A program made the position numbers and the translations under genes. From positions 62,608 to 126,607 of the forward strand of contig DATKAB010000053.1 in assembly GCA_035498555.1 (NCBI GenBank): DNA of 64,000 bases. The letters run 5' to 3'. A model generated the notes under the pieces. It saw only the letters and a program-made list of their open reading frames with translations. It had not been told where the DNA came from and ran no database searches. The DNA is from Candidatus Sulfotelmatobacter sp. (GTDB lineage: Bacteria; Eisenbacteria; RBG-16-71-46). Positions 7,240 to 23,993 of the stretch are shown piece by piece; the first letter of the stretch is position 1, and each line of letters begins with the position of its first letter.

Positions 7240-8051
7240 GCGCACGCGTGGCGGTGGTGCAGATTCCCGGCACCAACTGCGAAGCGGAAAGCGTGCGCGC
7301 GCTCGAGCGCGTGGGACTTTCCGCCCAGGTGCATCCGTGGTCGCTGCCGGCGGATCGCCTGCGCGACTATCAGGCATTCGTGCTGCCCGGAGGTTTCGCC
7401 TATCAGGATCGCGTGCGCGCCGGCGCGCTGGCGGCCAAGGAGGCGAGCCTCGAGGTACTGGCCGAGGAAGCCGCGCGCGGCAAACCGGTGCTCGGCATCT
7501 GCAACGGCGCTCAGGTGCTGGTCGAGGCCGGCCTGGTGCCGAGCGAGGGGCCGGTCGAGCTGGCGCTGGCGCGCAACCGCATGAAACATCGGGTGGGTTA
7601 CTACGCCCGCTGGATCCACCTGCGCGTCGAGGAGAGCCCCTGCGTGTTCACGCGCTCGCTCGAGCCGGGAACCGTTCTGGCGATGCCGGTCGCTCACGGC
7701 GAAGGACGCTTCGCGTCGCGGAGCCCCGAGCGGCTCGCGGCGCTACTGCGCGGTGGACAGGTGCCGCTCCGCTACGCCTCGGCCGACGGCGGGCTCGCCG
7801 ACGATTTCCCGGACAATCCCAACGGCTCTCCTCACGCGATCGCGGCCGTCTGCAACCGCCGCGGCAACGTGCTGGCGCTGATGCCGCACCCCGAGCGCGC
7901 CCAGGATCTCGGCGGCCTGGGCCGCGAGGTCGGCGGCGCGTGGGGGGAACGCTACGATGCGTGGGCCGGCAGCGGCTCTCCCGACGCGGATGCCCGGGGG
8001 CCCGGGCTGGCTCTGTTCGAGGGACTGCGTCAGTATCTGGAGCGCGCATGA
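7236..8051 (+). CDS. purQ: phosphoribosylformylglycinamidine synthase subunit PurQ (glutaminase)
   Basis: GTG start overlaps the purL stop. N-terminus VAVVQIPGTNCE and the GICNGAQ catalytic-Cys motif identify a class-I glutamine amidotransferase PurQ. Confidence 0.85.
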   Translation: MSARVAVVQIPGTNCEAESVRALERVGLSAQVHPWSLPADRLRDYQAFVLPGGFAYQDRVRAGALAAKEASLEVLAEEAARGKPVLGICNGAQVLVEAGLVPSEGPVELALARNRMKHRVGYYARWIHLRVEESPCVFTRSLEPGTVLAMPVAHGEGRFASRSPERLAALLRGGQVPLRYASADGGLADDFPDNPNGSPHAIAAVCNRRGNVLALMPHPERAQDLGGLGREVGGAWGERYDAWAGSGSPDADARGPGLALFEGLRQYLERA

Positions 8052-8656
8052 CGGCGAGGACGGGACCGGCAGGAGTAACGCGGGAGGCGAGGCCGTCACG
8101 CACGGTCCAGGCGTGGATCGAGCCGATCGCCGACGATCCCGAGGCGCTGTCGGCGCTCGAGGTCGCACGCCGCACGCTCCCGGCGTCGCTTCGGCTGCGC
8201 TCGCTGCGGCGCATGCGGCTGATGGAAATCACCGGACCGCTGAAGGAAGGATGGGATGTGGGCGAACGGCTTCATGAATCCACGCAGTTCTACAACCCTC
8301 ACAAGGAGCGCGTGTTCCTGCGCCAGTCGACGGCCGACCTCACGCCGGGCTCCGCCGAGGAACGCCTGGTGCTGATCCGCGAGCGCGGAGGGGAGCGTCG
8401 CGCCGCGGCGGAGCGCTGGTGGCGTCATGTCACGGGTGATCCGGTGCAAGTTCGCGAGGCCACGGTGTGGCTGGTGACGCCGGAATCCGCCGAGACGGCG
8501 ACCGCGCTGCTCGGCGAGCTGGTCGAGCTGCGCGACCGTCATCACGGGTTGCTCTGCAATCCCCATTCGCAGGATCGCGAGCTCGCTTCGGCCACGGTGC
8601 CGGTGCCCTGGCTGGATCAGGCCCGGCCGGAGCGCGCGCGAAAGGGGAGACGATGA
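8048..8656 (+). CDS. hypothetical protein, possible atypical PurS-like FGAM synthase subunit
   Basis: 202-aa ORF with 4-nt overlaps to purQ upstream and purF downstream. The N-terminal half loosely resembles PurS (DPEALSALEVARRTL against the PurS DPQG..V..AL motif; LRRMRLMEI against VR.GK.IEL). No other PurS is present although PurL is the small type. Confidence 0.35.
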   Translation: MTARTGPAGVTREARPSRTVQAWIEPIADDPEALSALEVARRTLPASLRLRSLRRMRLMEITGPLKEGWDVGERLHESTQFYNPHKERVFLRQSTADLTPGSAEERLVLIRERGGERRAAAERWWRHVTGDPVQVREATVWLVTPESAETATALLGELVELRDRHHGLLCNPHSQDRELASATVPVPWLDQARPERARKGRR

Positions 8657-10102: not shown

Positions 10103-11620
10103 ATGTCGCTCGCCGAATTGATGCGGCAGAGGCAGGAGAAGCTCGAGCGCTGGCGGGCTCTGGGCGTGCCGCCCTATGCCTATCGTTTCGACGTCACGCA
10201 CGACGCCGCGCAGTGTCTGGCGCGCGGCGAGGCGGTGACCTCCGAGCCGGGCGAGCGCGTGCGCGTCGCCGGCCGGGTCATGGCGCTGCGCGGCCACGGC
10301 AAGGCGGGATTCGCGCACCTGCTCGACCGCTCCGGCAGGATCCAGCTCTACTTCCGCGCCGATCAGCTCGGCGAACAGTTCGCGCGATACGAGCTGCTCG
10401 ACGTCGGCGACTGGATCGGGGTGGAGGGCCCGCTGTTCCGCACCCGTACCGGCGAGATCACGGTGCGCGTCGACATGCTGGAACTGCTGGCCAAGTCCAT
10501 GCGCCCGCTGCCCGAGAAGTGGCACGGGCTGCGCGAGCCCGAAACCCGCTTCCGCCAGCGCTACGCCGACCTGTTCATGAACCTTGAGGTGCGCGAGGTG
10601 TTTCGGCGGCGCAGCGCCATGATCGCCGCGCTGCGCGACGGGCTGACCGCGCACGGCTACCTGGAGGTCGAGACGCCGGTGCTGCAGCCGCTCTACGGCG
10701 GCGCTTTCGCGCGGCCATTCGTGACCCGCCACCTCGCGCTCGACATGGATCTCTACCTGCGGATCTCCGACGAGCTCTATCTCAAGCGCCTGATTGTGGG
10801 CGGACTCGATCGCGTGTTCGAGTTCTCTCGCAACTTCCGCAACGAGGGCATGGATCGCTCGCACAACCCCGAGTTCACGATCCTCGAGTACTACCAGGCG
10901 TTCGCCGACGTCCACGACATGATGGCGCTGACCGAGGCCCTCGTCACTGACGCGATCCGCCGGGTGCGGGGCGGGACCGTGCTTCCTCACGACGGCGGCA
11001 CGCTCGACTTCACGCCGCCCTGGCCGCGGCTCTCGATGCTGGACGCGGTGAGCGAGAAGGTCGGGGAGCCGGTCCACGATCTCGACCGTTCGCGGCTCGA
11101 GCAGATCGCCGCGCGCCACGGGCTCGGCGCGCGTCCCGGCACCGGCGCCGGCGGGCTGCTGGACGAGCTGTTCGGCGAACTGGTGCAGCCGGGGCTCGTT
11201 CGCCCCACCTTCGTGATCGATCACCCGATCGAGATCTCGCCGCTCGCGAGGCCGAGCCGCACCCGGCCCGGAGTGGTCGAGCGCTTCGAGCTGTTCATCG
11301 CCGGGATGGAGCTGGCCAACGCCTTTTCCGAGCAGAACGACCCCGAAGCGCAGCGCGCCGCGTTCGAGGCGCAGGCGCAGCGCCGCGCGAGCGGCGACGA
11401 AGAGGCGCATCCCATGGACCTCGACTACCTGCGCGCGCTCGAGTACGGCATGCCGCCGACCGGCGGGGTCGGCATCGGCATCGATCGGCTGGCCATGCTG
11501 GTCACCGACCAGCGGTCGATCCGCGATGTGATCCTGTTCCCGCAGCTCCGGCCCGAGGAGGGCCGCGCCGAGCCTCACGACGAAGAGGAGGCCGAACCCT
11601 CCGAGGCGCCGTCGCGGTGA
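10103..11620 (+). CDS. lysS: lysine--tRNA ligase (class II)
   Basis: OB-fold anticodon-binding N-terminus plus class II motifs (FRNEG, GGVGIGIDRL). Confidence 0.9.
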   Translation: MSLAELMRQRQEKLERWRALGVPPYAYRFDVTHDAAQCLARGEAVTSEPGERVRVAGRVMALRGHGKAGFAHLLDRSGRIQLYFRADQLGEQFARYELLDVGDWIGVEGPLFRTRTGEITVRVDMLELLAKSMRPLPEKWHGLREPETRFRQRYADLFMNLEVREVFRRRSAMIAALRDGLTAHGYLEVETPVLQPLYGGAFARPFVTRHLALDMDLYLRISDELYLKRLIVGGLDRVFEFSRNFRNEGMDRSHNPEFTILEYYQAFADVHDMMALTEALVTDAIRRVRGGTVLPHDGGTLDFTPPWPRLSMLDAVSEKVGEPVHDLDRSRLEQIAARHGLGARPGTGAGGLLDELFGELVQPGLVRPTFVIDHPIEISPLARPSRTRPGVVERFELFIAGMELANAFSEQNDPEAQRAAFEAQAQRRASGDEEAHPMDLDYLRALEYGMPPTGGVGIGIDRLAMLVTDQRSIRDVILFPQLRPEEGRAEPHDEEEAEPSEAPSR

Positions 11621-12855
11621 GACTCTCCCTGTGGATCGCCGGGCGCTATCTGCGCACCCGGCGACAGAGCGGATTCATCTCGCTGCTCACCGGGATTTCG
11701 ATCGGCGGGGTTACGGTCGGGGTCACCGCGTTGCTCACCGTGCTGGCGGTGATGAACGGCTTCGAGAGCGAGGTCCAGACCCGCATCGCCGGCACCGACG
11801 CCCACGTCGTGCTGCTGGGGGAGAACACCGCGGCGGTCAAGGACGCCGATCCGCTGGCCGCCAGCGTCGCGAAGCTTCCGGGGGTCGCCGGCGTCGCGCC
11901 CTTCGTCTACACCAAGGCGATCGTCTTCCATGAAGGCCTCACCGAGGGCCTGGTGGTGAAGGGTGTGGATCTCCGCGCCGAACGCACCGTCACCACCATC
12001 GGCAAGCACATCGAGCCGCCGCTCGATTCGATTCCGCGCATGACGCCCGGGGGCGCTCCCGGCATCGTGCTGGGCTCGGAGCTCGCGGCCCGGCTCGGCA
12101 CCGGGCCCGGCCAGCGCGTGACGCTGGTCTCGATGGTCGGCGCCCGGAACTCGGCGATGGGTTTCGCTCCCAAATTGCGCGCCTTCCAGGTGGTCGGGAT
12201 CTTCACCTCGGGGCTCTACACCTACGATTCGAGCTTCGGCTTCACCTCGCTCCCGGCGGCTCAGGATTTCTTCGGCTACCAGGACGGTGTCACCGGGCTC
12301 GAGATCCGGCTCGACGACATGTTCGACGCGCCGCGCATGGCGGCGCGGATCCTGGCGGCGCTGCATCGCCCCGATCTGCGCAGCAACAACTGGATCGAGC
12401 TCAATCGGAATCTGTTCACCTGGATGAAGCTCGAGAAGGTGGTGATGTTCGTGATCCTCGCTCTGATCGTGGTGGTCGCGACCTTCAACATCGTCAGCAC
12501 GCTGTTCATGGTGGTGCTCGAGAAGCGCCGCGACATCGGGGTGCTCAAGTCGCTCGGGGCCTCGGACGGCCTGGTGCTGCGCGTGTTCCTCTGGAAGGGA
12601 CTGCTGATCGGCGCTGCCGGCACCTTCCTTGGCGCCACGCTCGGGGTGACGCTCATCGAGATCCTGCGCCGCTACCCGTTCGTGAAGCTTCCGGGTGACG
12701 TCTACTTCATCGAACGCCTGCCGGTTCGGCCAGAATGGGGCGACTTCGCCGCCGTGATTCTGGCCGCCCTGTCCCTGTGCCTGATCGCCGCCCTCTATCC
12801 CGCCTGGCGGGCCTCCCGACTCGACCCGGTCGAAGCCATCCGCGGCCCGGTGTGA
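11617..12855 (+). CDS. lolC: lipoprotein-releasing system transmembrane subunit LolC/LolE (FtsX-family permease)
   Basis: GTG overlaps the lysS stop. 412 aa with an N-terminal TM, large periplasmic domain and C-terminal FtsX 3-TM module; followed by lolD. Confidence 0.75.
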   Translation: MRLSLWIAGRYLRTRRQSGFISLLTGISIGGVTVGVTALLTVLAVMNGFESEVQTRIAGTDAHVVLLGENTAAVKDADPLAASVAKLPGVAGVAPFVYTKAIVFHEGLTEGLVVKGVDLRAERTVTTIGKHIEPPLDSIPRMTPGGAPGIVLGSELAARLGTGPGQRVTLVSMVGARNSAMGFAPKLRAFQVVGIFTSGLYTYDSSFGFTSLPAAQDFFGYQDGVTGLEIRLDDMFDAPRMAARILAALHRPDLRSNNWIELNRNLFTWMKLEKVVMFVILALIVVVATFNIVSTLFMVVLEKRRDIGVLKSLGASDGLVLRVFLWKGLLIGAAGTFLGATLGVTLIEILRRYPFVKLPGDVYFIERLPVRPEWGDFAAVILAALSLCLIAALYPAWRASRLDPVEAIRGPV

Positions 12856-12887: not shown

Positions 12888-13589
12888 GTGAATAGGACAG
12901 TATCGGACTCGACTCCCGTTCTGGTGGCACGCGGGCTCGAGAAACGCTACCGCCACGGGCACGAGGTGCTCGAGGTACTGCGAGGGCTCGATCTCGAGGT
13001 CACGCGCGGCATGCTTCTGGCTATCGTCGGAGCTTCGGGTTCGGGCAAGAGCACCCTGCTGAACATTCTTGGGACACTTGACCGGCCCGACGCGGGCACC
13101 GTCGAGTTGGAGGGTCGCAGGCTGGAAGGACTGTCCGCCCCGGAGCTGGCCCGGATTCGGGCCCGGCGGATCGGATTCGTGTTCCAGTTCCACCATCTGC
13201 TGCCGGAGTTCAGCGCCGAGGAGAACGTCATGATGCCACTCCTGATGACGGGTCAGTCCACCCTCGAAGCCCGGGCGCGGGCCCGGGAGCTGCTCGGCGT
13301 GCTCTCGCTCTCGGGTTGGCGCGATCATCGCCCGGCCGAACTCTCGGGTGGCGAGGCCCAGCGCGTGGCGGTGGCGAGGGCGCTGGCGGCGTCGCCGGAT
13401 CTGGTCCTGGCGGACGAACCCAGCGGAAACCTCGACTCCCAGACCGCACAGGAACTCCACCAGCTCCTGACAACCCTCTGTCGCGAGCGACATCAAACTT
13501 TCGTCATCGCCACCCACAACGAACGCCTGGCGTCGGCCGCCGATCGAGTGCTCAAGCTCGAAGCGGGCCGCCTGCGTCCCATGGAATAG
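12888..13589 (+). CDS. lolD: lipoprotein-releasing ABC transporter ATP-binding protein LolD
   Basis: Walker A GASGSGKST, ABC signature LSGGEAQR, Walker B LVLADEP. Confidence 0.75.
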   Translation: MNRTVSDSTPVLVARGLEKRYRHGHEVLEVLRGLDLEVTRGMLLAIVGASGSGKSTLLNILGTLDRPDAGTVELEGRRLEGLSAPELARIRARRIGFVFQFHHLLPEFSAEENVMMPLLMTGQSTLEARARARELLGVLSLSGWRDHRPAELSGGEAQRVAVARALAASPDLVLADEPSGNLDSQTAQELHQLLTTLCRERHQTFVIATHNERLASAADRVLKLEAGRLRPME

Positions 13590-13603
13590 AGGATCATCGA
13601 TTC

Positions 13604-14137
13604 ATGCTCTGTCAGATCTGCGGCAAGAGCCCGGCCACCGTGCACTTCACGGAGATCCAGGACAACAAGATGTCCGAGATCCACGTGTGCGATCGCTGCG
13701 CGGAGGAAAAGGGCATGCACGCCTCGGCGAAGAAGCACAAGTTCGACATCGCCGACCTGCTGGCGGGCATGGTGGACGGCATGACCTCGACCGAGGAGGA
13801 GCGCGTCGGGCACGTCCAGTGCCCGCGCTGCGGCATGCTGTATTCGGCCTTCAAGGAGACCGGCCGCCTGGGCTGCGCCGAGTGTTACGCCGCCTTCCAG
13901 TTCCAGCTCCGGCCGCTGCTGCGCAGGATCCACGGCGACACCCGCCACAAGGGCAAGAAGCCGGCGCGCGATCATGCCGGCGCCACCCGCACCCGGCAGA
14001 TCCAGCGCCTTCACGACGAGCTGCAACGCGCCGTCGAGCGCGAGGACTTCGAACGCGCCGCCAGCATTCGCGACGAGATTCGCCGCCTGGAGCGCGAAGC
14101 GCAGGTGACGACCGATCCGGCGGAGGGGCGCTCGTGA
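13604..14137 (+). CDS. mcsA: protein-arginine kinase activator McsA (zinc-finger plus UVR motif)
   Basis: Paired CxxC zinc-finger motifs (CQICG, CDRC, CPRC, CAEC) followed by a UVR-like motif (ERAASIRDEIRRLE). Confidence 0.7.
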   Translation: MLCQICGKSPATVHFTEIQDNKMSEIHVCDRCAEEKGMHASAKKHKFDIADLLAGMVDGMTSTEEERVGHVQCPRCGMLYSAFKETGRLGCAECYAAFQFQLRPLLRRIHGDTRHKGKKPARDHAGATRTRQIQRLHDELQRAVEREDFERAASIRDEIRRLEREAQVTTDPAEGRS

Positions 14138-15252
14138 GCGCGGAGCGTCCCAATCCGCCCGCCGACTTCGGCGACCTGCTGTCGCGACCGAGCCCCTGGC
14201 TCTCCGGCGATGGCCCGCACGCCGAGATGGTGCTGTCGACGCGCATGCGCCTCGCCCGCAATCTGCAGAGCGTGCCGTTCACGCATCGCGCCCGCGACGA
14301 GCAGCTCCAGGGCGTGATGATGAGCGTGACCGGCGCGGCTCAGCGCGCCGCATCGTTCGAAGGCGGGCTGATGCTGCGCATGAACGAGCTGGAGCCGGTC
14401 GAGCGGCAGATCCTGGTCGAGCGCCACCTGGTCAGTCACGAGCTGGGCGACGGCGTGCGCCCGCGTGGAATCCTGATCGGTTCGGACCAGCGCCTGTCGC
14501 TGATGATCAACGAGGAGGATCACCTGCGGCTTCAATCGATGGCCGCCGGGTTCCAGCTGGCGGAGGCCTGGTCGCTGGCCGACGACGCCGACGACGAGCT
14601 CGAGCAGGGTCTCGACTACGCGTTCTCGGAAGAGATCGGCTATCTCACCTCGTGCCCGACCAACGCCGGCACCGGACTGCGTGCCTCGGTGCTCATCCAC
14701 CTGCCGGCGCTGGTGCTGCTCGAGGAGATCCAGCGGGTCTTGAAGAGCGTGGCGCAGGTGGGGCTCAACGTGCGCGGCCTGTACGGCGAGCACAGCGAGG
14801 TGATGGGCAATCTGTTCCAGATCTCGAATCAGACCACCCTCGGTCGCGGCGAACACGATTCCATCGAGCAACTCGATCGCGTGACCCGCCAGATCATCGG
14901 CTGGGAGGAAAAGGCGCGCGAGCGTATGATGCGGGATGCGCGAGTCCAGGTGGAGGACAAGGTGTGGCGGGCCTACGGCACGCTGCGTCATTGTCGCTCC
15001 ATTCAGACCCGCGAAGTCATCAATTTGTGTTCGGCGGTGCGCTTCGGCGTGGCCCTGGGCCTGAACGGCCTCTGCCCGCTCGGAGTGCTCAATGAATTGC
15101 TGGTGATCACGCAGCCTGCGCACCTCCAGCGCGCTCATGGCGGGCAGCTTCAGCCGGCCGAGCGCAACGTGGTGCGCGCGGATGTGGTGCGCGAGAGGCT
15201 GGCGGCCGCGGAGCGGGAAGAGCCGCGCCGGCGCCGGCCGAATCGCGAATAG
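14134..15252 (+). CDS. mcsB: protein arginine kinase McsB (ATP:guanido phosphotransferase family)
   Basis: GTG overlaps the mcsA stop. The phosphagen-kinase catalytic domain motif CPTNAGTGLRASV matches the McsB/creatine-kinase signature. Confidence 0.8.
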   Translation: MSAERPNPPADFGDLLSRPSPWLSGDGPHAEMVLSTRMRLARNLQSVPFTHRARDEQLQGVMMSVTGAAQRAASFEGGLMLRMNELEPVERQILVERHLVSHELGDGVRPRGILIGSDQRLSLMINEEDHLRLQSMAAGFQLAEAWSLADDADDELEQGLDYAFSEEIGYLTSCPTNAGTGLRASVLIHLPALVLLEEIQRVLKSVAQVGLNVRGLYGEHSEVMGNLFQISNQTTLGRGEHDSIEQLDRVTRQIIGWEEKARERMMRDARVQVEDKVWRAYGTLRHCRSIQTREVINLCSAVRFGVALGLNGLCPLGVLNELLVITQPAHLQRAHGGQLQPAERNVVRADVVRERLAAAEREEPRRRRPNRE

Positions 15253-15334
15253 CGAAGCCGAAAACTACAGGCGTGGGAGCGGCGACCACCGGTCGGTGGC
15301 CGCGGGCTCCCCTCCAGGGAACGAGAGCAACGCC

Positions 15335-17812
15335 ATGCATGACAAATTCACGGAGCGGGTGCGAAAGGTCATCTACCTCGCGCGCGAGGAAGCGGCGAGG
15401 CTCCAGCACGACTACATCGGCACCGAGCATCTGTTGCTGGGTGTGATTCGCGAGGGCGAGGGCATCGCGGCCACCGTGCTGAACAATCTGGGGCTCGATC
15501 TCGATCGCATTCGCCAGGAAGTCGAGAACATGGTGAGCGCCTCCGGCGGCACCATGACCATTGGCGAGATCCCCTTCACGCCGCGCGCGAAGCGCGTGCT
15601 GGAGCTGGCCGTCGAGGAAGCTCGATCGCTGGGTCACAACTACGTCGGCACCGAGCACCTGTTGCTGGGGCTGATTCGCGAAGGCGAAGGCGTAGCCGCC
15701 AAGGTGCTGCTCGAGCTGGGCGTGGACCGCAAGCGCGTGCGCGAAGAGACCCTGAAGCTCCTGGGCGGCACGCCGTCTTCGAGCAGCAGTGCCGAGCGCG
15801 AGGAGCGTCCGGAGACCCCGGCCCTCAATCAGTTCGGTCGCGACCTCACCCAGCTGGCGCGCGAGGGCAAGCTGGATCCGGTGATCGGCCGCGACAAGGA
15901 GATCGAGCGCGTCATCCAGGTGCTATCGCGTCGCAAGAAGAACAATCCGGTGCTGATCGGCGAGCCGGGCGTCGGCAAGACCGCGATCGCCGAGGGGCTG
16001 GCGCAGCGGATCGTCTCGGCGCAGGTGCCGGAGAGCCTCAAGAACAAGCGCATCGTCACGCTCGACCTGGCGGCGGTGGTGGCCGGCACCAAGTATCGCG
16101 GTCAGTTCGAAGAGCGCCTGAAGACGGTGATGAACGAGATCCGGGAATCGAAGGACACCGTGATCTTCATCGACGAGCTGCACACCATCGTCGGCGCGGG
16201 CGGCGCGGAGGGCGCGATCGACGCGAGCAACATGCTCAAGCCGGCTCTGGCACGCGGCGAGCTCCAGTGCATCGGCGCCACCACCCTCGACGAGTACCGC
16301 AAGTACATCGAGAAGGACGGCGCGCTCGAGCGCCGCTTCCAGCCGGTGATGGTGGACCAGCCGAGCATTCAGGACACGATCGCGATCCTGAACGGGCTGC
16401 GCGACAAGTACGAGGCGCACCACGGTGTCAAGATCACTGATAGCGCGGTGGTCCAGGCGGTCAAGCTCGCCGATCGCTACATGAACGACCGGTTCTTCCC
16501 GGACAAGGCCATCGACGTGATCGACGAGGCGTGCGCGCGCGCGCGCCTGTCGGTGAGCACCGTGCCCTCCGAGATCCACGAGCTCGAGAAGAAGCTCGAG
16601 GAGGTCATCAAGGAGAAGGAATCGGCGATCCGTGGCCAGGAGTACGAGAAGGCCGCCCGGCTGCGCGACCGCGAGAAGGAGCTGCGCGCGCGCCGCAACG
16701 AGCTCAAGAAGTCGTGGTCGGAGTCCAAGCGCGACAAGGAAGTTCAGGTCGACGAAGAGCTGATCGCCTCGGTGCTCTCGGTGATGACCGGGATCCCGGT
16801 CGTGAAGCTGGCCGAGGAGGAAACTCAAAAGCTCCTGCGCATGGAGGACGAACTCGGCAGGCGCGTGGTGGGGCAGGCCGAAGCGGTCGCGGCCGTGTCC
16901 CGCGCGGTGCGCCGCAATCGAGTCGGCCTGCGCGATCCCAAGCGTCCAATCGGTTCGTTCATCTTCCTGGGTCCCACCGGCGTGGGCAAGACCGAGCTGG
17001 CGCGGGCGCTCGCGGCTTTTCTTTTCGATGACGAAGACGCGCTCATTCGGATTGACATGTCGGAGTACATGGAGAAATTCTCGGTTTCGCGCCTGGTGGG
17101 AGCACCGCCGGGCTACGTGGGGTATGAGGAGGGCGGGCAACTCACCGAGAAGGTGCGCCGTAAGCCCTATTCGGTGGTGCTGCTCGACGAGATCGAGAAG
17201 GCGCATCCCGACGTATTCAATGTGCTCTTGCAGGTGCTGGATGACGGCGTCCTCACCGACAGCTCCCGTCGGCGCGTGGACTTCAAGAACACCGTCATCA
17301 TCATGACTTCGAATCTGGGCGGCCGGCAGATCGTCACGGGCGCGCGCAACCTGGGCTTCAAACAGGCGGCGGCCGGCGCTCAGCAGTTCGCGGCGATCAA
17401 GAGCACCGTCCAGGACGAACTCAAGCGCACCTTCAATCCGGAGTTCCTCAACCGGGTCGACGACGTGATCGTGTTCCACGCGCTCAGCCGCGAGGACATG
17501 GCCAACATCGTTCAGATCCTCTTGGGTCAGGTCAAGGAGCGACTGCGTGCACAAGAGATTCAACTCGAGATTCAACCCGAGGCGATCGAGCTCCTCATCG
17601 ACAAGGGGTTCGACCCGGCGCTGGGAGCGCGCCCCCTCAAGCGGGCCATTCAGCGACTGCTGGAGGATCCGCTCGCGGAATTCATCCTGCGCGGGCAGCT
17701 TCCTGGCGGCGCCGGCATCTGCGTGGAGCGCCGCAGCGACGAGCTCGCCTTCGAGCCCGCTGCCGCCCAGAAACCTGCGGAGGCTCCCGCTCCTGCGGTC
17801 CCGGGTCGTTAG
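15335..17812 (+). CDS. clpC: ATP-dependent Clp protease ATP-binding subunit ClpC
   Basis: Duplicated Clp N-domain repeats, two AAA+ modules (GEPGVGKT and GPTGVGKT Walker A motifs), and a UVR/M-domain linker ([14 protein letters not shown]). Confidence 0.9.
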
Positions 17813-20186
17813 CGCGGTCCTACCGCTCCTCCTCACGCTCCTCTCGGCGCCGGCGACCGCACAGTCGCCGGCGCCGGAGCGCTCCGACGCCGAGCCGCCG
17901 GTGGTCGGCGCGATCACGGTGGTCGGCAACACCATCACCGACACCACGCGCATCATCCGTTCGTTCGAGGTGGTGCCCGGCACGCGCTACAGCGAGGATG
18001 CGGTGCGCCGCGGCATGCGCAAGCTGTTCGCGCTCGGCGTGTTCGAGGACGTGTGGGTCGACAAGGACCTGCAGGGCGACACCATGAACCTCGTGATCCA
18101 CGTCGCCGAGCGGCGAAGGATCTCCAGGATCGAGTTCACCGGTCAGCGCAAGAAGAGCGAAGACGATCTGAAGAAGAAGCTCTTCCTCCACGTCGGTGAG
18201 AGTTACTCGCCGGTCCAGACCCGCAGCCAGGTGGACACGCTGCTCAAGCTCTATCGCGACGACGGTTACGCCCAGGCCGCGATCGACGCGGTGACCGACA
18301 CCACCGTCGGGCCGGGACAGCTCGCCCTTCGATTCGTGATTCGCGAGGGCGAGAAGGTCAGGATCGAACGCATCACCTTCGAGGGGATCTCGGCCTTCAA
18401 CGAGGCGCGGCTGCGCAAGAACATGAAGACTCACCAGAAGGGCTTCTTCGGCGGCGGCGAGGTCAAAGAGGAAGACCTGATGCAGGACAAGGAGAAGCTC
18501 GAGACCTGGTATCACGACCACGGCTACCGGGACATGCGCGTGGCCGGGCACGAGCTGTTGCCGGGCAGCGAGCCCAGGCGCCTGATCCTGCACGTGAAGA
18601 TCGAAGAGGGGCGTCCGTATTTCATCGGCAACGTGCGCTGGGAGGGTAACAAGGTCATCGGTCCGGCCGACCTGGCCAAGGTGCCGCAGCCCAAGAGCGG
18701 CGATCTCTACGACGCCAGCAAGATCGACCGAGCGCGCGGCGAGGCGTTCGGCAGCTACGCCGAGCACGGCTATCTGTACGTCCAGATCGAACCTCAGGAA
18801 AGCCTGCGCGACTCGCTGGTGGACATCACCTTTCACATCACCGAGGGCGATCCGTCCAATGTTCGCTACGTGGTGATCTCCGGCAACAAGGCGACCCGCG
18901 AGAAAGTGATCCGTCGCGAGATCGACATCCACGAGGGCGATCGCTTCCGGCGATCGGCGTTGATGCGGACGCGGGACGACATCATGCGACTCGGCATCTT
19001 CGAGGACGTGGCGATCGATTTCGGCCCGACCGAGACCAGCGACGTCGATGTGCTGCTCAAGGTGAAGGAGAAACAGGTCGGCACCGCGTCGGCGGGTGCG
19101 GGCTACACCAGCGCGACCGGCGTCACCGGGTTCGTCGAGCTGGGTCACAACAACGTGCTCGGCAACGGCCAGAGCCTGCAGCTGCACCTGGAGCGGGGCG
19201 CGACCAGCAACAACTATTTCCTGAGTTTCACCGAGCCGTGGTTCCACGACACCCCGACCCTGCTCGGCATCTCGGCGTTCAACACCGCCACCAATCAGGA
19301 TCTCTATCGCGAGAAGCGCGTCGGCGGCTCGGTTCGGATCGGCCGGCCGCTCCCCTGGCCCGACTACTCGCGCGGCTCGATCACGTATCGCCTGGAAGGC
19401 GTCACGCTCGACTCGCTCGGCACGCTCAGCGACGCGAACCGACTCGCGCTGACCGGCACCAAGTGGGGCGAGCAGGCCACCACCAGCAGCATGGAATTCG
19501 ACTTTCTCCGCAACACCACCGACAACCCGATGTACCCGAAGCGCGGCACGCGTCTCGCCCTCAGCAGCGAACTGGCGGGCGGTCCGTTTCTGGGCAACGT
19601 GAACTTCCAGAAGCAGCGGGTCGAGGGGCGGCTCTACATGCCTTCGATCCTGCGCGGCATCACCACCATGATGCGGGCGCGTGCCGGATGGCTGGGCGAA
19701 TTCGGACTCAGCAGCCTGCAGCCGGTGCCCGAATACGAACGCTTCCGGCTCGGCGGCGGCTCGACCATCGACCCGCTGCGCGGCTACGACGACTACATGG
19801 TGGTGCCGGAAAAGTTCATCCAGCGGGTGCGAACCCCGATTCTTGGCATCGTGATCGACAGTCTCGGGGTGGCGCGCAGCGACACCCTCGGCTACACCAA
19901 TTCCACGGTGCGCTACCCCGGTGGGCGCTTCTTCACCAGCTATACGGTCGAGCAGCAGTTCCCCATTGTGAATCCGCTGCACGGTGTGTTCTTCTTCGAC
20001 GCGGGAAACACCTGGGATCTGTTCAGTGAGATCAAGCCGTTCGACCTCAAGATGGGTGCCGGCATCGGCTTCCGCCTCGAGATCCCGCTGCTCGGCAACA
20101 TCGGCTTCGACTACGGATATGGATTCAATCGAGACGATCACCCCAAAGCCGTGGGCCACTTCCTGCTCGGAAACGTCAACTTCTGA
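17778..20186 (+). CDS. bamA: outer membrane protein assembly factor BamA (start codon uncertain)
   Basis: POTRA repeats followed by a C-terminal Omp85 beta-barrel. A signal-peptide-like segment ([30 protein letters not shown]) follows the clpC stop, but the first canonical in-frame start after that stop is GTG at 17901, inside the mature region. The listed start is the in-frame CTG at 17778. Confidence 0.8.
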   Translation, partial: RRLPLLRSRVVSAVLPLLLTLLSAPATAQSPAPERSDAEPPVVGAITVVGNTITDTTRIIRSFEVVPGTRYSEDAVRRGMRKLFALGVFEDVWVDKDLQGDTMNLVIHVAERRRISRIEFTGQRKKSEDDLKKKLFLHVGESYSPVQTRSQVDTLLKLYRDDGYAQAAIDAVTDTTVGPGQLALRFVIREGEKVRIERITFEGISAFNEARLRKNMKTHQKGFFGGGEVKEEDLMQDKEKLETWYHDHGYRDMRVAGHELLPGSEPRRLILHVKIEEGRPYFIGNVRWEGNKVIGPADLAKVPQPKSGDLYDASKIDRARGEAFGSYAEHGYLYVQIEPQESLRDSLVDITFHITEGDPSNVRYVVISGNKATREKVIRREIDIHEGDRFRRSALMRTRDDIMRLGIFEDVAIDFGPTETSDVDVLLKVKEKQVGTASAGAGYTSATGVTGFVELGHNNVLGNGQSLQLHLERGATSNNYFLSFTEPWFHDTPTLLGISAFNTATNQDLYREKRVGGSVRIGRPLPWPDYSRGSITYRLEGVTLDSLGTLSDANRLALTGTKWGEQATTSSMEFDFLRNTTDNPMYPKRGTRLALSSELAGGPFLGNVNFQKQRVEGRLYMPSILRGITTMMRARAGWLGEFGLSSLQPVPEYERFRLGGGSTIDPLRGYDDYMVVPEKFIQRVRTPILGIVIDSLGVARSDTLGYTNSTVRYPGGRFFTSYTVEQQFPIVNPLHGVFFFDAGNTWDLFSEIKPFDLKMGAGIGFRLEIPLLGNIGFDYGYGFNRDDHPKAVGHFLLGNVNF

Positions 20187-20187
20187 C

Positions 20188-20763
20188 GTGACGACTCCCG
20201 TGCGCTCGCGTCTCCATCCGATTCTCGGGCCGGCGCTGGTGGCGGTCGTGGCGCTGGCGTTCTCGGCGTCCCGGTCGCCCGCCGCCTCGGACCTGAAGAT
20301 CGGCTATATTGACTCGTCTCGGATCTTCCAGGAGTACAAGGCCGCCCAGGAAGCGCAGGCGAGCTTCGAGCGGCAGGTTCAGGGATGGCGCAGCGAGGCC
20401 GACGAGAAGCAGAAGGTCGTGGACCAGCTGCGGGCCGAGGTCCGGGATCAGGGTCCGATTCTCTCGGCCACCAAACGCCAGGAAAAGGAAGAAGCGCTGC
20501 AGCGGGCGATCAGCGATTACGAGAAGTTCGTGCAGGACACCTGGGGGCCGCAGGGTCGCGCTTCGCAGGAGAACGAGCGGGCCACTCAGGAAGTCATCGG
20601 ACAGATTCGCTCGGTGGTCGAGAAGCTGGCAGCCGATCGTCAGCTGGATCTGGTGCTGGACGCGGCGAGCGGCATCATCATTTACGCGGACAAGACGCTG
20701 GATCTGACATCGGCCGTTCTGCAGGAGCTGGCGCTCCGCAGCAGCACGGGAGCCACTCACTGA
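20188..20763 (+). CDS. skp: OmpH/Skp-family periplasmic chaperone
   Basis: GTG 1 nt after the bamA stop; signal peptide then a coiled-coil-rich 190-aa protein; sits in the canonical bamA-skp-lpxD position. Confidence 0.75.
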   Translation: MTTPVRSRLHPILGPALVAVVALAFSASRSPAASDLKIGYIDSSRIFQEYKAAQEAQASFERQVQGWRSEADEKQKVVDQLRAEVRDQGPILSATKRQEKEEALQRAISDYEKFVQDTWGPQGRASQENERATQEVIGQIRSVVEKLAADRQLDLVLDAASGIIIYADKTLDLTSAVLQELALRSSTGATH

Positions 20764-20851: not shown

Positions 20852-21901
20852 ATGATCACGCGCACGCTGGCCGAACTGGCTGCCGAACTCGGGGGCGAAG
20901 TCGCGGGGGACGGCTCGACCGTCATTCGCGGCGTGGCCGGGATTCGCGAGGCTCAGCCCGGCGACGTCACCTTCCTCGCCAACTCGCGTTACGACACCTA
21001 TCTCTCCGAGACCCGCGCCTCGGCGGTGATCTGTTCGCGCGACGCACGCACCTCTCTGCTGCCGCTGCTGCACGTCGACAATCCCTATCTCGCGTTCCAG
21101 AAGGTGGTGCGCATCTTCCGGCCCGATGCCTTTCGGCAGCCCGCCGGCATCCACCCCTCCGCGGTGGTGGACCCCTCGGCGCGACTGGGCGTCGAGGTTT
21201 CGATCGGACCGAACTGCGTGATCGAACGGGATGCGCAGATTGGCGAGCGCGCCGTGATCATGGCCGGCAGCTACGTGGGAGTCGCGTCCCGCGTCGGCGC
21301 CGGAACGGTGTTCTACCCGCGCGTCACGCTGCGGGAAGAGTGCGTGGTGGGGGAGCGGTGCATCATCCACAGCGGCGCAGTGATCGGCGCCGACGGCTTC
21401 GGCTTTGCCTTCGACGCCGGGAAGTATCACAAGGTCCCGCAGGTCGGAAACGTCGAGATCGGTGACGACGTCGAGATCGGGGCCAACACCACCATCGATC
21501 GCGCCACCACCGAGAGCACCCGGATCGGCGACGGCACCAAGATCGACAATCTGGTCCAGATCGGCCACAACGTGGTGATCGGCAAGCACTGCATCATCGT
21601 GGCGCAGGTGGGGATCTCGGGAAGCACCGAGCTCGAGGACTACGTCACCGTGGGCGGCCAGGCCGGGCTGGTGGGGCACATCCGCCTGGGACGCGGCTCC
21701 CAGGTCGGCGCGCAGAGCGGGGTATCGAAATCGGTGCCGGCCAACGCCACGGTGTTCGGTTATCCGGCGGCGCCGCTTTCGGCGTTCAAGCGGCTCAACG
21801 CCTATCTGCAGCGGCTGCCGCAGTTGTTCCAGCGCACCAAGACCATCGAGGAGCGCATCGAGAAGCTCGAGCGGGAGGCTCAGCGCGAGGAAGTGAGATG
21901 A
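20852..21901 (+). CDS. lpxD: UDP-3-O-(3-hydroxyacyl)glucosamine N-acyltransferase
   Basis: LpxD N-terminal domain followed by left-handed beta-helix hexapeptide repeats and a C-terminal helix. Confidence 0.9.
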   Translation: MITRTLAELAAELGGEVAGDGSTVIRGVAGIREAQPGDVTFLANSRYDTYLSETRASAVICSRDARTSLLPLLHVDNPYLAFQKVVRIFRPDAFRQPAGIHPSAVVDPSARLGVEVSIGPNCVIERDAQIGERAVIMAGSYVGVASRVGAGTVFYPRVTLREECVVGERCIIHSGAVIGADGFGFAFDAGKYHKVPQVGNVEIGDDVEIGANTTIDRATTESTRIGDGTKIDNLVQIGHNVVIGKHCIIVAQVGISGSTELEDYVTVGGQAGLVGHIRLGRGSQVGAQSGVSKSVPANATVFGYPAAPLSAFKRLNAYLQRLPQLFQRTKTIEERIEKLEREAQREEVR

Positions 21902-23220
21902 TCGCTCGGCCGCAGCGAACCATCCAGCGCGAGGCCTCGTTCGAGGGGGTCGGGCTCCACACCGGCGAGAAGGGCCGGGTGACCTTCAAGCCCGCCGTGG
22001 TCGGCTCGGGAATTCGATTCGTCCGCACCGATCTGGCCGGCCGCCCCACCGTCACGGTGCGGCCCGAGAACGCCGCCTTCGATCCCAGCGCCGGACGCCG
22101 CACCATCCTGCAGGAGAACGGCGTCCAGATCCACACCATGGAGCATCTGCTCGCGGCGGTGGCCGGGCTCGGCATCGACAACCTGATGATCGAGACCTCG
22201 ACCATGGAGATCCCCGAGCCGGCCGACGGCAGTGCCGCGCCGATCGCCCGCATTCTCCAATCCGCCGGCTTCGTCGAGCAGGATCGGGCCCGCCGCCACC
22301 TCAAGGTGACGCGGCCGGTGGTGTGGTCGGAGAACGGGGTCTCGCTGTCGGCGGTTCCATTTCAGGGCTTTCGCATTACCTTCCAGATCGACTACGACCA
22401 CCCGATGATCGGGCGGCAAACCGTGACCTTCGACATCGACGACGAGACCTTCATGCGCGAGATCGCCCCGGCGCGCACCTTCGTGCTCGAGCGCGACGTC
22501 GAAGCTCTGCGCACCGCTGGCTGGATCAAGGGCGGACGCATCGAGAGCGCGGTGGTGGTGGGGGAGAACGGCCTGCGCAATCCCGAGCCGCTCCGCTATC
22601 CGGACGAGTTCGCGCGCCACAAGGTGCTGGATCTGCTCGGCGATCTGTCGCTGCTCGGCGGACCGCTGCTCGGTCACGTGACCGCGGTCAAGGCTGGCCA
22701 CCAGAGCCACGTGGCGTTCGTCAAGCACCTGAAGGAGACCCTGCCGCTGCCCGGGCGCCGGCCGGGAAGTCCGGCCGACGAGTGGGACGTCACCGCGGTG
22801 ATGGACATCCTTCCGCATCGGTATCCCTTCCTGCTGGTGGATCGCGTCACCGGCTTGGAGGAGGGGAAGTGGATCGAAGGCATCAAGAACGTCACCATCA
22901 ACGAGCCCTTCTTCCAGGGACACTTCCCGGGCCACCCGATCATGCCGGCGGTGCTGATCATCGAGGCGATGGCGCAGGTGGGCGGACTGCTGCTGCTCAA
23001 CTCGATCGACGATCCGCACGACAAGTTGATGTACTTCATGGGCATCGACGCGGCGAAATTCCGCCGCCCGGTCACGCCTGGGGATCAGATTCGCTTCCAT
23101 CTGTCGCTGCTCAAGTTGCGCAAGGGCACCTCGAAAATGCGCGGCGAGGCCTTCGTCGGCGACCAGCTGGTCGCCGAGGCCGAGCTGCTGGCGATGGTCG
23201 TGGATCGGCGCCGGACGTGA
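21898..23220 (+). CDS. lpxC/fabZ: bifunctional UDP-3-O-acyl-N-acetylglucosamine deacetylase / 3-hydroxyacyl-ACP dehydratase (LpxC/FabZ fusion)
   Basis: N-terminal LpxC (HTMEHLLAA zinc-site region) joined in-frame to a C-terminal FabZ hot-dog domain (FFQGHFPGHPIMPAVLIIEAMAQ). ATG overlaps the lpxD stop. Confidence 0.9.
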   Translation: MIARPQRTIQREASFEGVGLHTGEKGRVTFKPAVVGSGIRFVRTDLAGRPTVTVRPENAAFDPSAGRRTILQENGVQIHTMEHLLAAVAGLGIDNLMIETSTMEIPEPADGSAAPIARILQSAGFVEQDRARRHLKVTRPVVWSENGVSLSAVPFQGFRITFQIDYDHPMIGRQTVTFDIDDETFMREIAPARTFVLERDVEALRTAGWIKGGRIESAVVVGENGLRNPEPLRYPDEFARHKVLDLLGDLSLLGGPLLGHVTAVKAGHQSHVAFVKHLKETLPLPGRRPGSPADEWDVTAVMDILPHRYPFLLVDRVTGLEEGKWIEGIKNVTINEPFFQGHFPGHPIMPAVLIIEAMAQVGGLLLLNSIDDPHDKLMYFMGIDAAKFRRPVTPGDQIRFHLSLLKLRKGTSKMRGEAFVGDQLVAEAELLAMVVDRRRT

Positions 23221-23993
23221 GCACCCGCATTCATCCCGCCGCGCTGGTGGATCCCGGCGCGCAGCTTGGAACCGACGTCGAGGTCGGCCCGGGTACGGTG
23301 GTCGGGCCCCATGCGCGGATCGGGGATCGCACCCGGATCGGCTCGTGCGCGCTGATCACCGGCTGGGCCCGAATCGGCAGCGATTGCAAGCTCCATCATG
23401 GCGCGGTGGTCGGCAGCCCGCCCCAGGATCTCAAGTATCCGGGCGAGGAGTCGTACCTCGAGATCGGTGATCGCACCGAGGTTCGCGAGTTCGTCACCGC
23501 GAATTTGGCCACCGAGCCGGGCGCGACGACGCGCATCGGCAGCGAGTGCCTGTTGATGGCCTACTCGCATGTCGCGCACGATTGCCAGCTCGGCAGTCAT
23601 GTGGTGGTGGCGAACTCGGTACAGTTCGCCGGCTACGTCACGGTCGAGGACTGGGCGATCGTCGGCGGCGGTTCGCTGATTCACCAGTTCGTTCGGATTG
23701 GTTGCCACGCGATGATCGGAGGCGGCTCGCGGATTCCGCAGGACGTGGCACCCTACATCACGCTGGCCGGCAGCCCCCCGCGTCTCGCCGGGATCAACGT
23801 GATCGGGCTCGAGCGCCGCGGGTTCGGGAAGGAGACGGTGGACGCCCTGAACGGCGCGTATCGGGTGTTGTTTCGCGAAGGGCTGAACCTCGGCGAGGCG
23901 GTATCCGCTCTGCGCGATCGCTACGCCGCCCATCCCGAGGTGGAACACCTCGCACGCTTTGCCGAGACGTCGACGCGGGGGCTGACGCGATGA
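23217..23993 (+). CDS. lpxA: acyl-ACP--UDP-N-acetylglucosamine O-acyltransferase
   Basis: GTG overlaps the fusion-gene stop; hexapeptide-repeat beta-helix and the LpxA C-terminal helical domain. Confidence 0.9.
   Translation: MSTRIHPAALVDPGAQLGTDVEVGPGTVVGPHARIGDRTRIGSCALITGWARIGSDCKLHHGAVVGSPPQDLKYPGEESYLEIGDRTEVREFVTANLATEPGATTRIGSECLLMAYSHVAHDCQLGSHVVVANSVQFAGYVTVEDWAIVGGGSLIHQFVRIGCHAMIGGGSRIPQDVAPYITLAGSPPRLAGINVIGLERRGFGKETVDALNGAYRVLFREGLNLGEAVSALRDRYAAHPEVEHLARFAETSTRGLTR

Follow-up and report, generated by a model that had tools for sequence, protein, structure and literature searches.

A 64-kb stretch of DNA from Candidatus Sulfotelmatobacter sp. (contig DATKAB010000053.1, positions 62,608 to 126,607; referred to here as the window) carries three contiguous genes, mcsA, mcsB and clpC, at positions 13604–17812 of the + strand. 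The favored interpretation, to which we assign a probability of roughly 80%, is that these genes form an orthodox McsA-McsB-ClpC phospho-arginine quality-control module in an Eisenbacteria-like diderm, inherited within an old gene string that runs from lysS through lolCE, lolD, mcsA, mcsB and clpC into envelope genes. Judged from its sequence, the module is complete and apparently functional, and it is a regular member of the known McsAB-ClpC system. Comparisons were made with 80 related loci, one genome per species, taken as the best matches to the window McsB and consisting of 32 Eisenbacteria-like loci and 48 others. The window proteins were mapped onto each locus, and neighboring genes were counted only where the flank was long enough.

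Evidence that the locus encodes a protein arginine kinase came from domain, homolog and residue comparisons of McsB (372 aa; mcsB at 14134–15252), in which a kinase domain is followed by a C-terminal dimerization domain with the phospho-arginine receptor site. The ATP:guanido phosphotransferase domain PF00217 matches residues 67–260 at 224.7 bits, the “protein arginine kinase” model NF002194 scores 409.4 bits against a cut-off of 385, and the identical McsB record carries a precomputed match to PF27454 (McsB_C). McsB aligns over its full length with the solved B. subtilis and G. stearothermophilus McsB proteins (E ~1e-97; 6TV6 and 6FH1 among them). It has no N-terminal phosphagen-kinase domain, and arginine kinases align with it only from about their residue 99 onward. 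Residue roles in McsB, McsA and ClpC were taken from published work (PMC11046695, PMC8370763, PMC12583610), with McsB residues numbered as in B. subtilis. The window protein keeps NEEDH (E121), C167 in TSCPTN, E212, R337 and R341, and in 69 McsB sequences from diderm genomes NEEDH, TxCPTN, E212, R337 and R341 are invariant. With the catalytic Cys and Glu in place, there is no sign of the inactive homolog that a first-pass annotation, made by a model from the sequence alone, had considered.

McsA (177 aa; mcsA at 13604–14137), the zinc-finger/UVR activator of McsB, has a PF02151 UVR match at residues 131–164, and the McsA model NF053706 aligns with residues 1–170. The eight zinc-ligand cysteines (C3, C6, C29, C32, C81, C84, C99 and C102 in B. 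subtilis, forming four CxxC pairs) are invariant in 75 sequences. Among the residues reported to contact McsB (PMC11046695), R96, G98, Y103 and H124 are invariant in 75/75 sequences, and H118 and K127 are conserved in 74; the window McsA keeps all of these together with T122, and has leucine for F97 and arginine for K83. ClpC (825 aa; 15335–17812, with an ATG start) is a class I AAA+ unfoldase whose Pfam domains are two Clp_N repeats, AAA, AAA_lid_9, UVR (a short UVR-type M-domain), AAA_2 and D2-small. It is colinear with B. subtilis ClpC over residues 2–805 (1046 bits), whereas ClpB reaches only 787 bits in two separate stretches, and the NCBIfam models for ClpB and ClpA both score below their cut-offs. 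The phospho-arginine pocket residues T7, E32, K85 and E106, of which E32 and E106 lie in GTEH motifs, are kept in the window ClpC and are invariant in 58 diderm ClpC proteins, and an LGF ClpP-docking loop is found at residues 673–675. Hence the identification of a genuine McsA-McsB-ClpC module holds: the catalytic, zinc-binding, McsB-contact, phospho-arginine-pocket and ClpP-docking residues that were tested are intact, apart from substitutions in the McsB receptor site (D338N, S285T) and in McsA (F97L, K83R).

A separate observation on ClpC concerns four loci from Ignavibacteria and Zixibacteria (L037, L041, L044 and L047), where the N-domains share 37–39% identity with the B. subtilis N-domain, as against 55–63% in other phyla; E32 and E106 are retained. 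These N-domains have either diverged or been called from the wrong start codons.

The contacts between the genes were read directly from the sequence. The lolD stop codon (TAG) ends at 13589 and the mcsA ATG begins at 13604, leaving a spacer of 14 nt (13590–13603, AGGATCATCGATTC) that contains an AGGA Shine-Dalgarno-like motif and is too short to have room for a promoter or operator. The mcsA stop codon (TGA, 14135–14137) overlaps the mcsB start codon (GTG, from 14134) in a GTGA junction at 14134–14137. mcsB and clpC are separated by 82 nt (15253–15334), with a G+C-rich stem-loop at about 15275–15311. Final gene calls were made with a codon log-odds model and agree with public gene calls, calling by a third-position G+C threshold being unreliable at ~69% G+C; an independent call on three public contigs with an identical McsB gives the same boundaries (177, 372 and 825 aa). 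The contiguity of the three genes, the GTGA overlap and the 14-nt gap after lolD, all reported in the first-pass annotation, are thus exact. Upstream, the conserved string opens with lysS (lysine-tRNA ligase; 10103–11620; NF001756, 649.5 bits against a cut-off of 468), which overlaps by 4 nt a LolC/E-type lipoprotein-release permease gene (11617–12855). The permease has the Pfam domains MacB_PCD and FtsX, and it scores 359.9 bits with the lolCE model TIGR02212, just below the cut-off of 362.45. It is followed by lolD (12888–13589), the ATPase of the Lol ATP-binding cassette system, whose top NCBIfam match is the LolD model TIGR02211 (265.7 bits, below the cut-off of 307.75). A single LolC/E-type permease gene stands beside lolD in the window and in all related loci.

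The same arrangement is found throughout the Eisenbacteria-like loci. The nearest relatives of the window McsB, at 71–87% identity and with the same synteny, are in Candidatus Eisenbacteria genomes. In the Eisenbacteria-like set, mcsA precedes mcsB in 31/31 loci, with lolD upstream in 29/29 and lysS upstream in 25/25, and mcsB is followed by clpC in 21/21 and by bamA in 16/16. In 31 of the 32 loci mcsA and mcsB overlap by the same 4 nt, and of the 31 loci where the distance from lolD to mcsA was measurable, 29 have a spacer of 3 to 28 nt or a 4-nt overlap (the spacer is 151 nt in L025, and L028 was not measurable). The first-pass annotation had allowed that the phylum might commonly carry this arrangement, and this is what was found, since all 32 Eisenbacteria-like loci have the string as far as their flanks reach. 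Because every relative in its phylum carries the module, it is an ordinary possession of this genome. One member of the set, L001, is labeled Saccharimonadaceae, and this metagenome-assembled genome looks mislabeled. The same applies to the source of the window, whose identical McsB is on record under the acidobacterial label Candidatus Sulfotelmatobacter; the window is best regarded as Eisenbacteria-like.

The 48 other loci carry labels that include NPL-UPA2, Nitrospirota, Ratteibacteria, Ignavibacteria, Zixibacteria, Omnitrophota and Auribacterota, with a few metagenome-assembled genomes assigned to Planctomycetia or Clostridia. Much of the string recurs in them: lolD lies upstream in 34/35 loci, lysS upstream in 23/23 and clpC downstream in 38/38, while bamA lies downstream in only 3/30. 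The layout is seen in about nine diderm lineages besides Eisenbacteria, and lolCE-lolD is upstream in no fewer than six candidate phyla outside that group. In Omnitrophota, NPL-UPA2, Ratteibacteria and similar loci (L033, L036, L038–L040 and L049–L080), a gene for a class IV aminotransferase (~290 aa, PF01063, of the IlvE or D-amino-acid aminotransferase type) stands between lolD and mcsA. The same interval holds a further 129-aa open reading frame (ORF) in NPL-UPA2 and a 191-aa ORF in L065, a genome labeled Clostridia.

These comparisons bear on how the arrangement arose. In B. subtilis the gene order is dusB, lysS (BSU00820), ctsR (BSU00830), mcsA (BSU00840) (PMC5270213). The interval between lysS and mcsA is occupied by lolCE-lolD in the sampled diderms and by ctsR in Bacillus. 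Since the linkage of lysS with mcsA-mcsB-clpC is common to Bacillus and these diderms, it is likely to be ancient. The window McsB is 44.7% identical to that of B. subtilis and has a median identity of 44.0% to those of other diderm phyla (for McsA, identity to B. subtilis is ~37%); identities spread in this star-like way do not point to a recent transfer from Bacilli. The simplest reading is that the linkage is ancient and shared, and not a recent Gram-positive borrowing, with ctsR as a lineage-specific addition at the locus; here the Gram-positive side is represented by one Firmicutes genome, which other Bacilli are presumed to resemble at this locus.

The first-pass annotation had instead described a “Gram-positive-type” module “recruited” into an outer-membrane supraoperon. 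That description does not survive the comparison, as the same string is found across Eisenbacteria and at least six diderm phyla, McsB is no nearer to Bacillus than to those phyla, and the lysS linkage is also found in B. subtilis. A related proposal is that this lineage received a Gram-positive mcsA-mcsB-clpC cassette by horizontal transfer, which landed between lolD and bamA and shed ctsR in the process. Such an origin is suggested by literature that places the system almost only in Firmicutes (PMC11046695, PMC8370763, PMC9604228), and by the authors of PMC10128030, who proposed horizontal acquisition for chlamydial mcsAB. However, the insertion point and the neighbors do not vary among the 32 Eisenbacteria-like genomes and are shared with loci of no fewer than six further diderm phyla, the identity to B. 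subtilis is no higher than the diderm median, and the G+C content of the module (0.66–0.67) matches that of its flanks. The lysS linkage is, moreover, common to Bacillus, so that a transfer must either date from very long ago or have carried the essential lysS and lol genes along. A recent transfer from Bacilli is ruled out by the synteny and the identity levels, and horizontal acquisition in any form is considered highly improbable. A more far-reaching version of shared inheritance is that lysS-[lolCE-lolD]-mcsA-mcsB-clpC is the ancestral bacterial arrangement, in which phospho-arginine marking and ClpC were functionally linked to the building of the envelope, for instance through removal of lipoprotein or outer-membrane-protein precursors that had not been exported. 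The Bacillus layout would then be what remained once the loss of the outer membrane had taken the lol genes with it, ctsR having been added as a new controller. This version appears rather improbable.

The absence of CtsR at the locus was examined with both operator and protein searches. The window contains no copy of the CtsR operator (GGTCAAANANGGTCAAA, a tandem GGTCAAA heptad) even with three mismatches allowed, and the 1.27 Mb of related loci contain a single match with two mismatches, which lies away from the module. For the protein search, a CtsR sequence was matched to PDB entry 3H0D (E = 5e-82), and the 3H0D sequence was then used as the query; neither tblastn nor phmmer --max found a CtsR homolog in the window and the 80 related loci (1.27 Mb in total). 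The 0.9–1.5 kb gap between lolD and mcsA in Omnitrophota-type loci was considered as a site for ctsR and rejected, as the gap is filled by the class IV aminotransferase gene (PF01063). These data agree with the first-pass annotation, which had reported neither ctsR nor tandem GGTCAAA boxes. Since neither a CtsR repressor nor its operator is present at the locus, the derepression loop of the Bacillus type is absent here.

Other control elements were similarly scarce. The search for an HrcA CIRCE element gave nothing meaningful in the window and related loci, and in the 8–24 kb region there was no match to a sigma-70-like promoter. Terminator searches of that region returned four weak matches, fewer than expected from shuffled sequence and none in an intergenic spacer, and Rfam returned only two, far below gathering scores and with none in the mcsB-clpC spacer.

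Several observations weigh against reading the locus as an orthodox module. The Bacillus-trained model NF053707 scores 389.9 bits with the window McsB, below its cut-off of 500, and the McsA model NF053706, whose name is Bacillus-based, scores 175.4 bits with the window McsA, below its cut-off of 210. Neither clpP nor a gene for a YwlE-type phospho-arginine phosphatase is in the window. The absence of CtsR applies at the level of the locus (the window, and related loci with flanks of at most 10 kb), and ctsR could be elsewhere in the genome. The promoter scan covered the sigma-70 consensus only, and the string may yet contain internal promoters, such as one within lolD or the 82-nt spacer. The 80 loci, as best matches to the window McsB, are not an unbiased sample of diderms, and all functional claims are drawn from conservation. 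Lastly, some residues of McsB differ from those of B. subtilis. In the window protein D338 is replaced by N, S285 by T and R190 by E, while R194, the octamer latch, stays R. D338N occurs in 31/32 Eisenbacteria-like McsB proteins, as against D in 37/37 from other phyla. Of the Eisenbacteria-like proteins, 23/32 have T or A in place of S285 and none has a basic residue at R190; R194 is K in 12/32 of them and in 20/37 from other phyla. In B. subtilis, R194K impairs octamer formation and heat tolerance (PMC8370763). The phospho-arginine receptor site has thus been altered in a lineage-specific way, and given D338N, S285T/A and R194K, the control of McsB self-regulation and self-assembly may differ from that in B. 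subtilis.

These substitutions would also fit a model in which McsB is mainly an adaptor of ClpC or a regulator of specific targets, and not a general degradation tagger, with its self-regulation altered through the changed receptor site; the impaired octamer formation and heat tolerance with R194K in B. subtilis point the same way. However, the catalytic residues and both receptor arginines are invariant, and the ClpC pockets are intact. Moreover, the B. subtilis system combines the two roles of adaptor and tagger, which makes the distinction a matter of degree and not one between different systems. The adaptor model is therefore considered unlikely, and the mechanism outlined next assumes an orthodox tagging module.

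Because the spacer between lolD and mcsA is only 14 nt, mcsA and mcsB are probably co-transcribed with lolD, and the GTGA overlap would couple their translation, so that activator and kinase are made in matched quantity. Since the catalytic and interface residues are invariant, McsA is expected to activate McsB by binding its kinase domain through the second zinc finger, and McsB to phosphorylate arginines of unfolded or aberrant proteins. Phospho-arginine would then bind both the receptor site in the C-terminal domain of McsB and the two pockets of the ClpC N-domain, thereby activating ClpC. Through its LGF loop, ClpC would thread the substrate into ClpP, which must be encoded elsewhere. The weakest steps of this scheme concern regulation: expression would probably be housekeeping-like, riding on the string of envelope genes, any response to stress would come from post-translational control of McsB and ClpC, and how much kinase is made relative to unfoldase may be adjusted by the conserved stem-loop in the mcsB-clpC spacer.

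The data on the stem-loop come from folding comparisons. In the window it folds no better than shuffled sequence (z = −0.72). Across 24 Eisenbacteria-like mcsB-clpC spacers compared with dinucleotide shuffles, the mean z is −1.09 and 22/24 values are negative, as against +0.13 for coding controls (Mann-Whitney p = 1e-5, a value that overstates independence since the sequences are related). A role in setting the ratio of mcsAB to clpC expression is plausible. The Eisenbacteria-like stem-loops are G+C-rich and lack a T-run, and their sequence is not conserved.

The position of the module raises the possibility that it is tied functionally to outer-membrane biogenesis. The first-pass annotation had placed it between lolCDE and bamA-skp-lpx. 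This stands for lolD upstream and for bamA-skp-lpx downstream, but not for separate lolC and lolE genes, since the window has one LolC/E-type permease gene only. Downstream of clpC, the public gene call places bamA at 17901–20186 (TIGR03303, 447 bits against a cut-off of 297; five POTRA repeats and an Omp85 domain). It is followed by skp/ompH, encoding a periplasmic chaperone (20188–20763; PF03938 OmpH, 96 bits), and by lpxD, an lpxC-fabZ fusion and lpxA, the start of the lipid A pathway (20852–23993). LpxD matches NF002060 at 419 bits, the fusion matches the LpxC/FabZ model NF009667 at 476 bits (cut-off 465), and LpxA is recognized by Hexapep and Acetyltransf_11. All of these genes are on the + strand. 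Further along the same strand are the remaining genes of the pathway, and the organism, judged from its gene content, is equipped with a full lipid A pathway, as expected of the lipopolysaccharide-containing host that the first-pass annotation had assumed.

Under a model of envelope coupling, McsB and ClpC would clear or regulate unexported lipoprotein or outer-membrane protein precursors, or components of the Lol, Bam or Lpx systems, and co-expression between lol and bam or mla genes would have been selected across phyla. In favor of this model, lolCE-lolD is constantly upstream, and envelope genes follow clpC in unrelated layouts. bamA-skp-lpx follows clpC in Eisenbacteria, NPL-UPA2 and Ratteibacteria. 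In Omnitrophota the genes after clpC encode MlaE, RuvCAB, MlaF and MlaD, and in Auribacterota a weak TamB-like match is followed by MlaE, MlaF and MlaD. Zixibacteria have genes for a peptidyl-prolyl isomerase, Dxr and RseP at this position. In the window itself, the signal-peptide-coding region of bamA overlaps the end of clpC. However, Ignavibacteria have fumarase genes after clpC, and gene order can last without functional coupling. In addition, the first 39 kb of the window form one dense same-strand array that also includes pur genes and tRNA ligase genes, so that adjacency within it is weak evidence of shared function. Envelope coupling is accordingly judged to be quite improbable.

Two of these downstream regions deserve description in their own right. 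In L073 (13551–19105, downstream of clpC), a ruvC-ruvA-ruvB set lies between mlaE and mlaF-mlaD. In L071 (13559–17938), a 569-aa protein with a weak TamB match is encoded ahead of mlaE.

The closest known system is the class III heat-shock operon ctsR-mcsA-mcsB-clpC of B. subtilis. It encodes the same three proteins as the orthodox module proposed here, in the same order and with the same domain architectures, and the two share NEEDH and C167 of McsB, the eight McsA cysteines, R337 and R341, E32 and E106 of ClpC, the ClpP-docking loop, and lysS as the preceding protein-coding gene. By contrast, the window lacks ctsR and CtsR operators, has lolCE-lolD between lysS and mcsA, and carries D338N and S285T; identity is ~45% for McsB and 37% for McsA. 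A further difference lies after clpC, where the window has bamA-skp-lpx and B. subtilis has radA-disA.

The published precedent for McsAB with ClpC in a Gram-negative comes from Chlamydia trachomatis, where ClpC together with ClpP degrades arginine-phosphorylated casein (PMC10128030). Like the window, this Gram-negative-type organism has McsA, McsB and ClpC, and CtsR is not mentioned in the passages of that source that were consulted. The chlamydial mcsAB operon, as described there, is apart from clpC, flanked by tRNA genes and suggested to be horizontally acquired, whereas the window has three contiguous genes in a lysS/lol string that spans several phyla. Mycobacterial ClpC1 provides a second parallel outside Firmicutes, with a ClpC-type N-domain whose phospho-arginine pockets are conserved; no McsB homologs are known in mycobacteria according to the same study, whereas the window has a full McsA/McsB pair beside clpC (PMC9604228).

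The literature treats arginine phosphorylation as a degradation tag of Gram-positive bacteria, and according to a 2022 paper it is unclear how widespread the tag is in other phyla. Literature searches found nothing relevant on McsB in Omnitrophota, Eisenbacteria or Planctomycetes, on its distribution, or on its linkage to lol genes. The broader pattern, a CtsR-less module next to lysS and lol genes in many diderm lineages, is modestly new. Intact McsA-McsB-ClpC sets in many uncultured diderm lineages widen the range in which phospho-arginine systems may be expected. On this evidence, in which Bacillus is the only Gram-positive sampled, control by CtsR would have been added in particular lineages and would lie outside the core system. 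The synteny of lysS with mcsAB-clpC could also serve as a marker for relating monoderm and diderm cell plans.

The wider gene array is compact. The window has a G+C content of ~69%, nearly all of its genes are on the + strand, and its cumulative GC skew climbs steadily over the whole length. From ~1 to 39 kb, genes on the same strand overlap or are separated by gaps of mostly <100 nt, and the 82-nt mcsB-clpC spacer is among the larger gaps. In all, ~35 genes are packed on one strand at 1–39526, covering purine synthesis, lysS, Lol, McsAB-ClpC, Bam/Skp, the whole lipid A pathway, msbA, two heptosyltransferases and proS. The order upstream of mcsA is asd, a CbiQ-family gene, truA, an HtrA-like protease gene, purB, purL, purQ, an ORF, purF, lysS, the LolC/E-type permease gene and lolD. 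Downstream of clpC, the order is bamA, skp, lpxD, lpxC-fabZ, lpxA, a Gfo/Idh/MocA oxidoreductase gene, lpxB, a DUF374 gene, kdtA, lpxK, a FAD flavoprotein gene, msbA and the heptosyltransferase genes. The ORF between purQ and purF (8048–8656) is conserved, overlaps each neighbor by 4 nt and has no Pfam or NCBIfam match; it encodes 202 aa in public gene calls, or 147 aa if translated from ATG 8213. The lpxC-fabZ fusion (21898–23220) is one gene of 440 aa, and the fusion is also found in related Eisenbacteria, NPL-UPA2 and Ratteibacteria loci and in one Omnitrophota locus. A C25 (gingipain-type) peptidase is encoded at 34125–35930, within the same-strand array.

A further observation concerns the start of bamA. 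The public call from GTG 17901 gives a protein without a signal peptide, and a signal-peptide-like segment of 32 residues is encoded in the bamA frame at 17769–17864, spanning the clpC stop at 17812. The true start is thus probably upstream of 17901, within the end of clpC. However, the bamA frame has no canonical start (ATG, GTG or TTG) between 17547 and 17901. This leaves three explanations: initiation at a CTG (17760 or 17775), initiation at GTG 17547 with a 266-nt overlap into clpC, or an assembly error. A start at 17805 was ruled out, as the codons there are GTC GTT, neither of them a start codon.

Finally, palindromic insertions are present in the operon spacers of two Eisenbacteria genomes, one of 230 nt between mcsB and clpC (L002, 11093–11322) and one of 151 nt between lolD and mcsA (L025, 9323–9473). 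The L002 insertion is bounded by perfect 17-nt terminal inverted repeats, and the repeats of the L025 insertion are shorter and contain a mismatch. The two have no Rfam match and no further copy in the window or related loci, and they share a common core, GGCACCCGCG(C)AAGCGGGTCC; the insertion looks like a small mobile or repetitive element.

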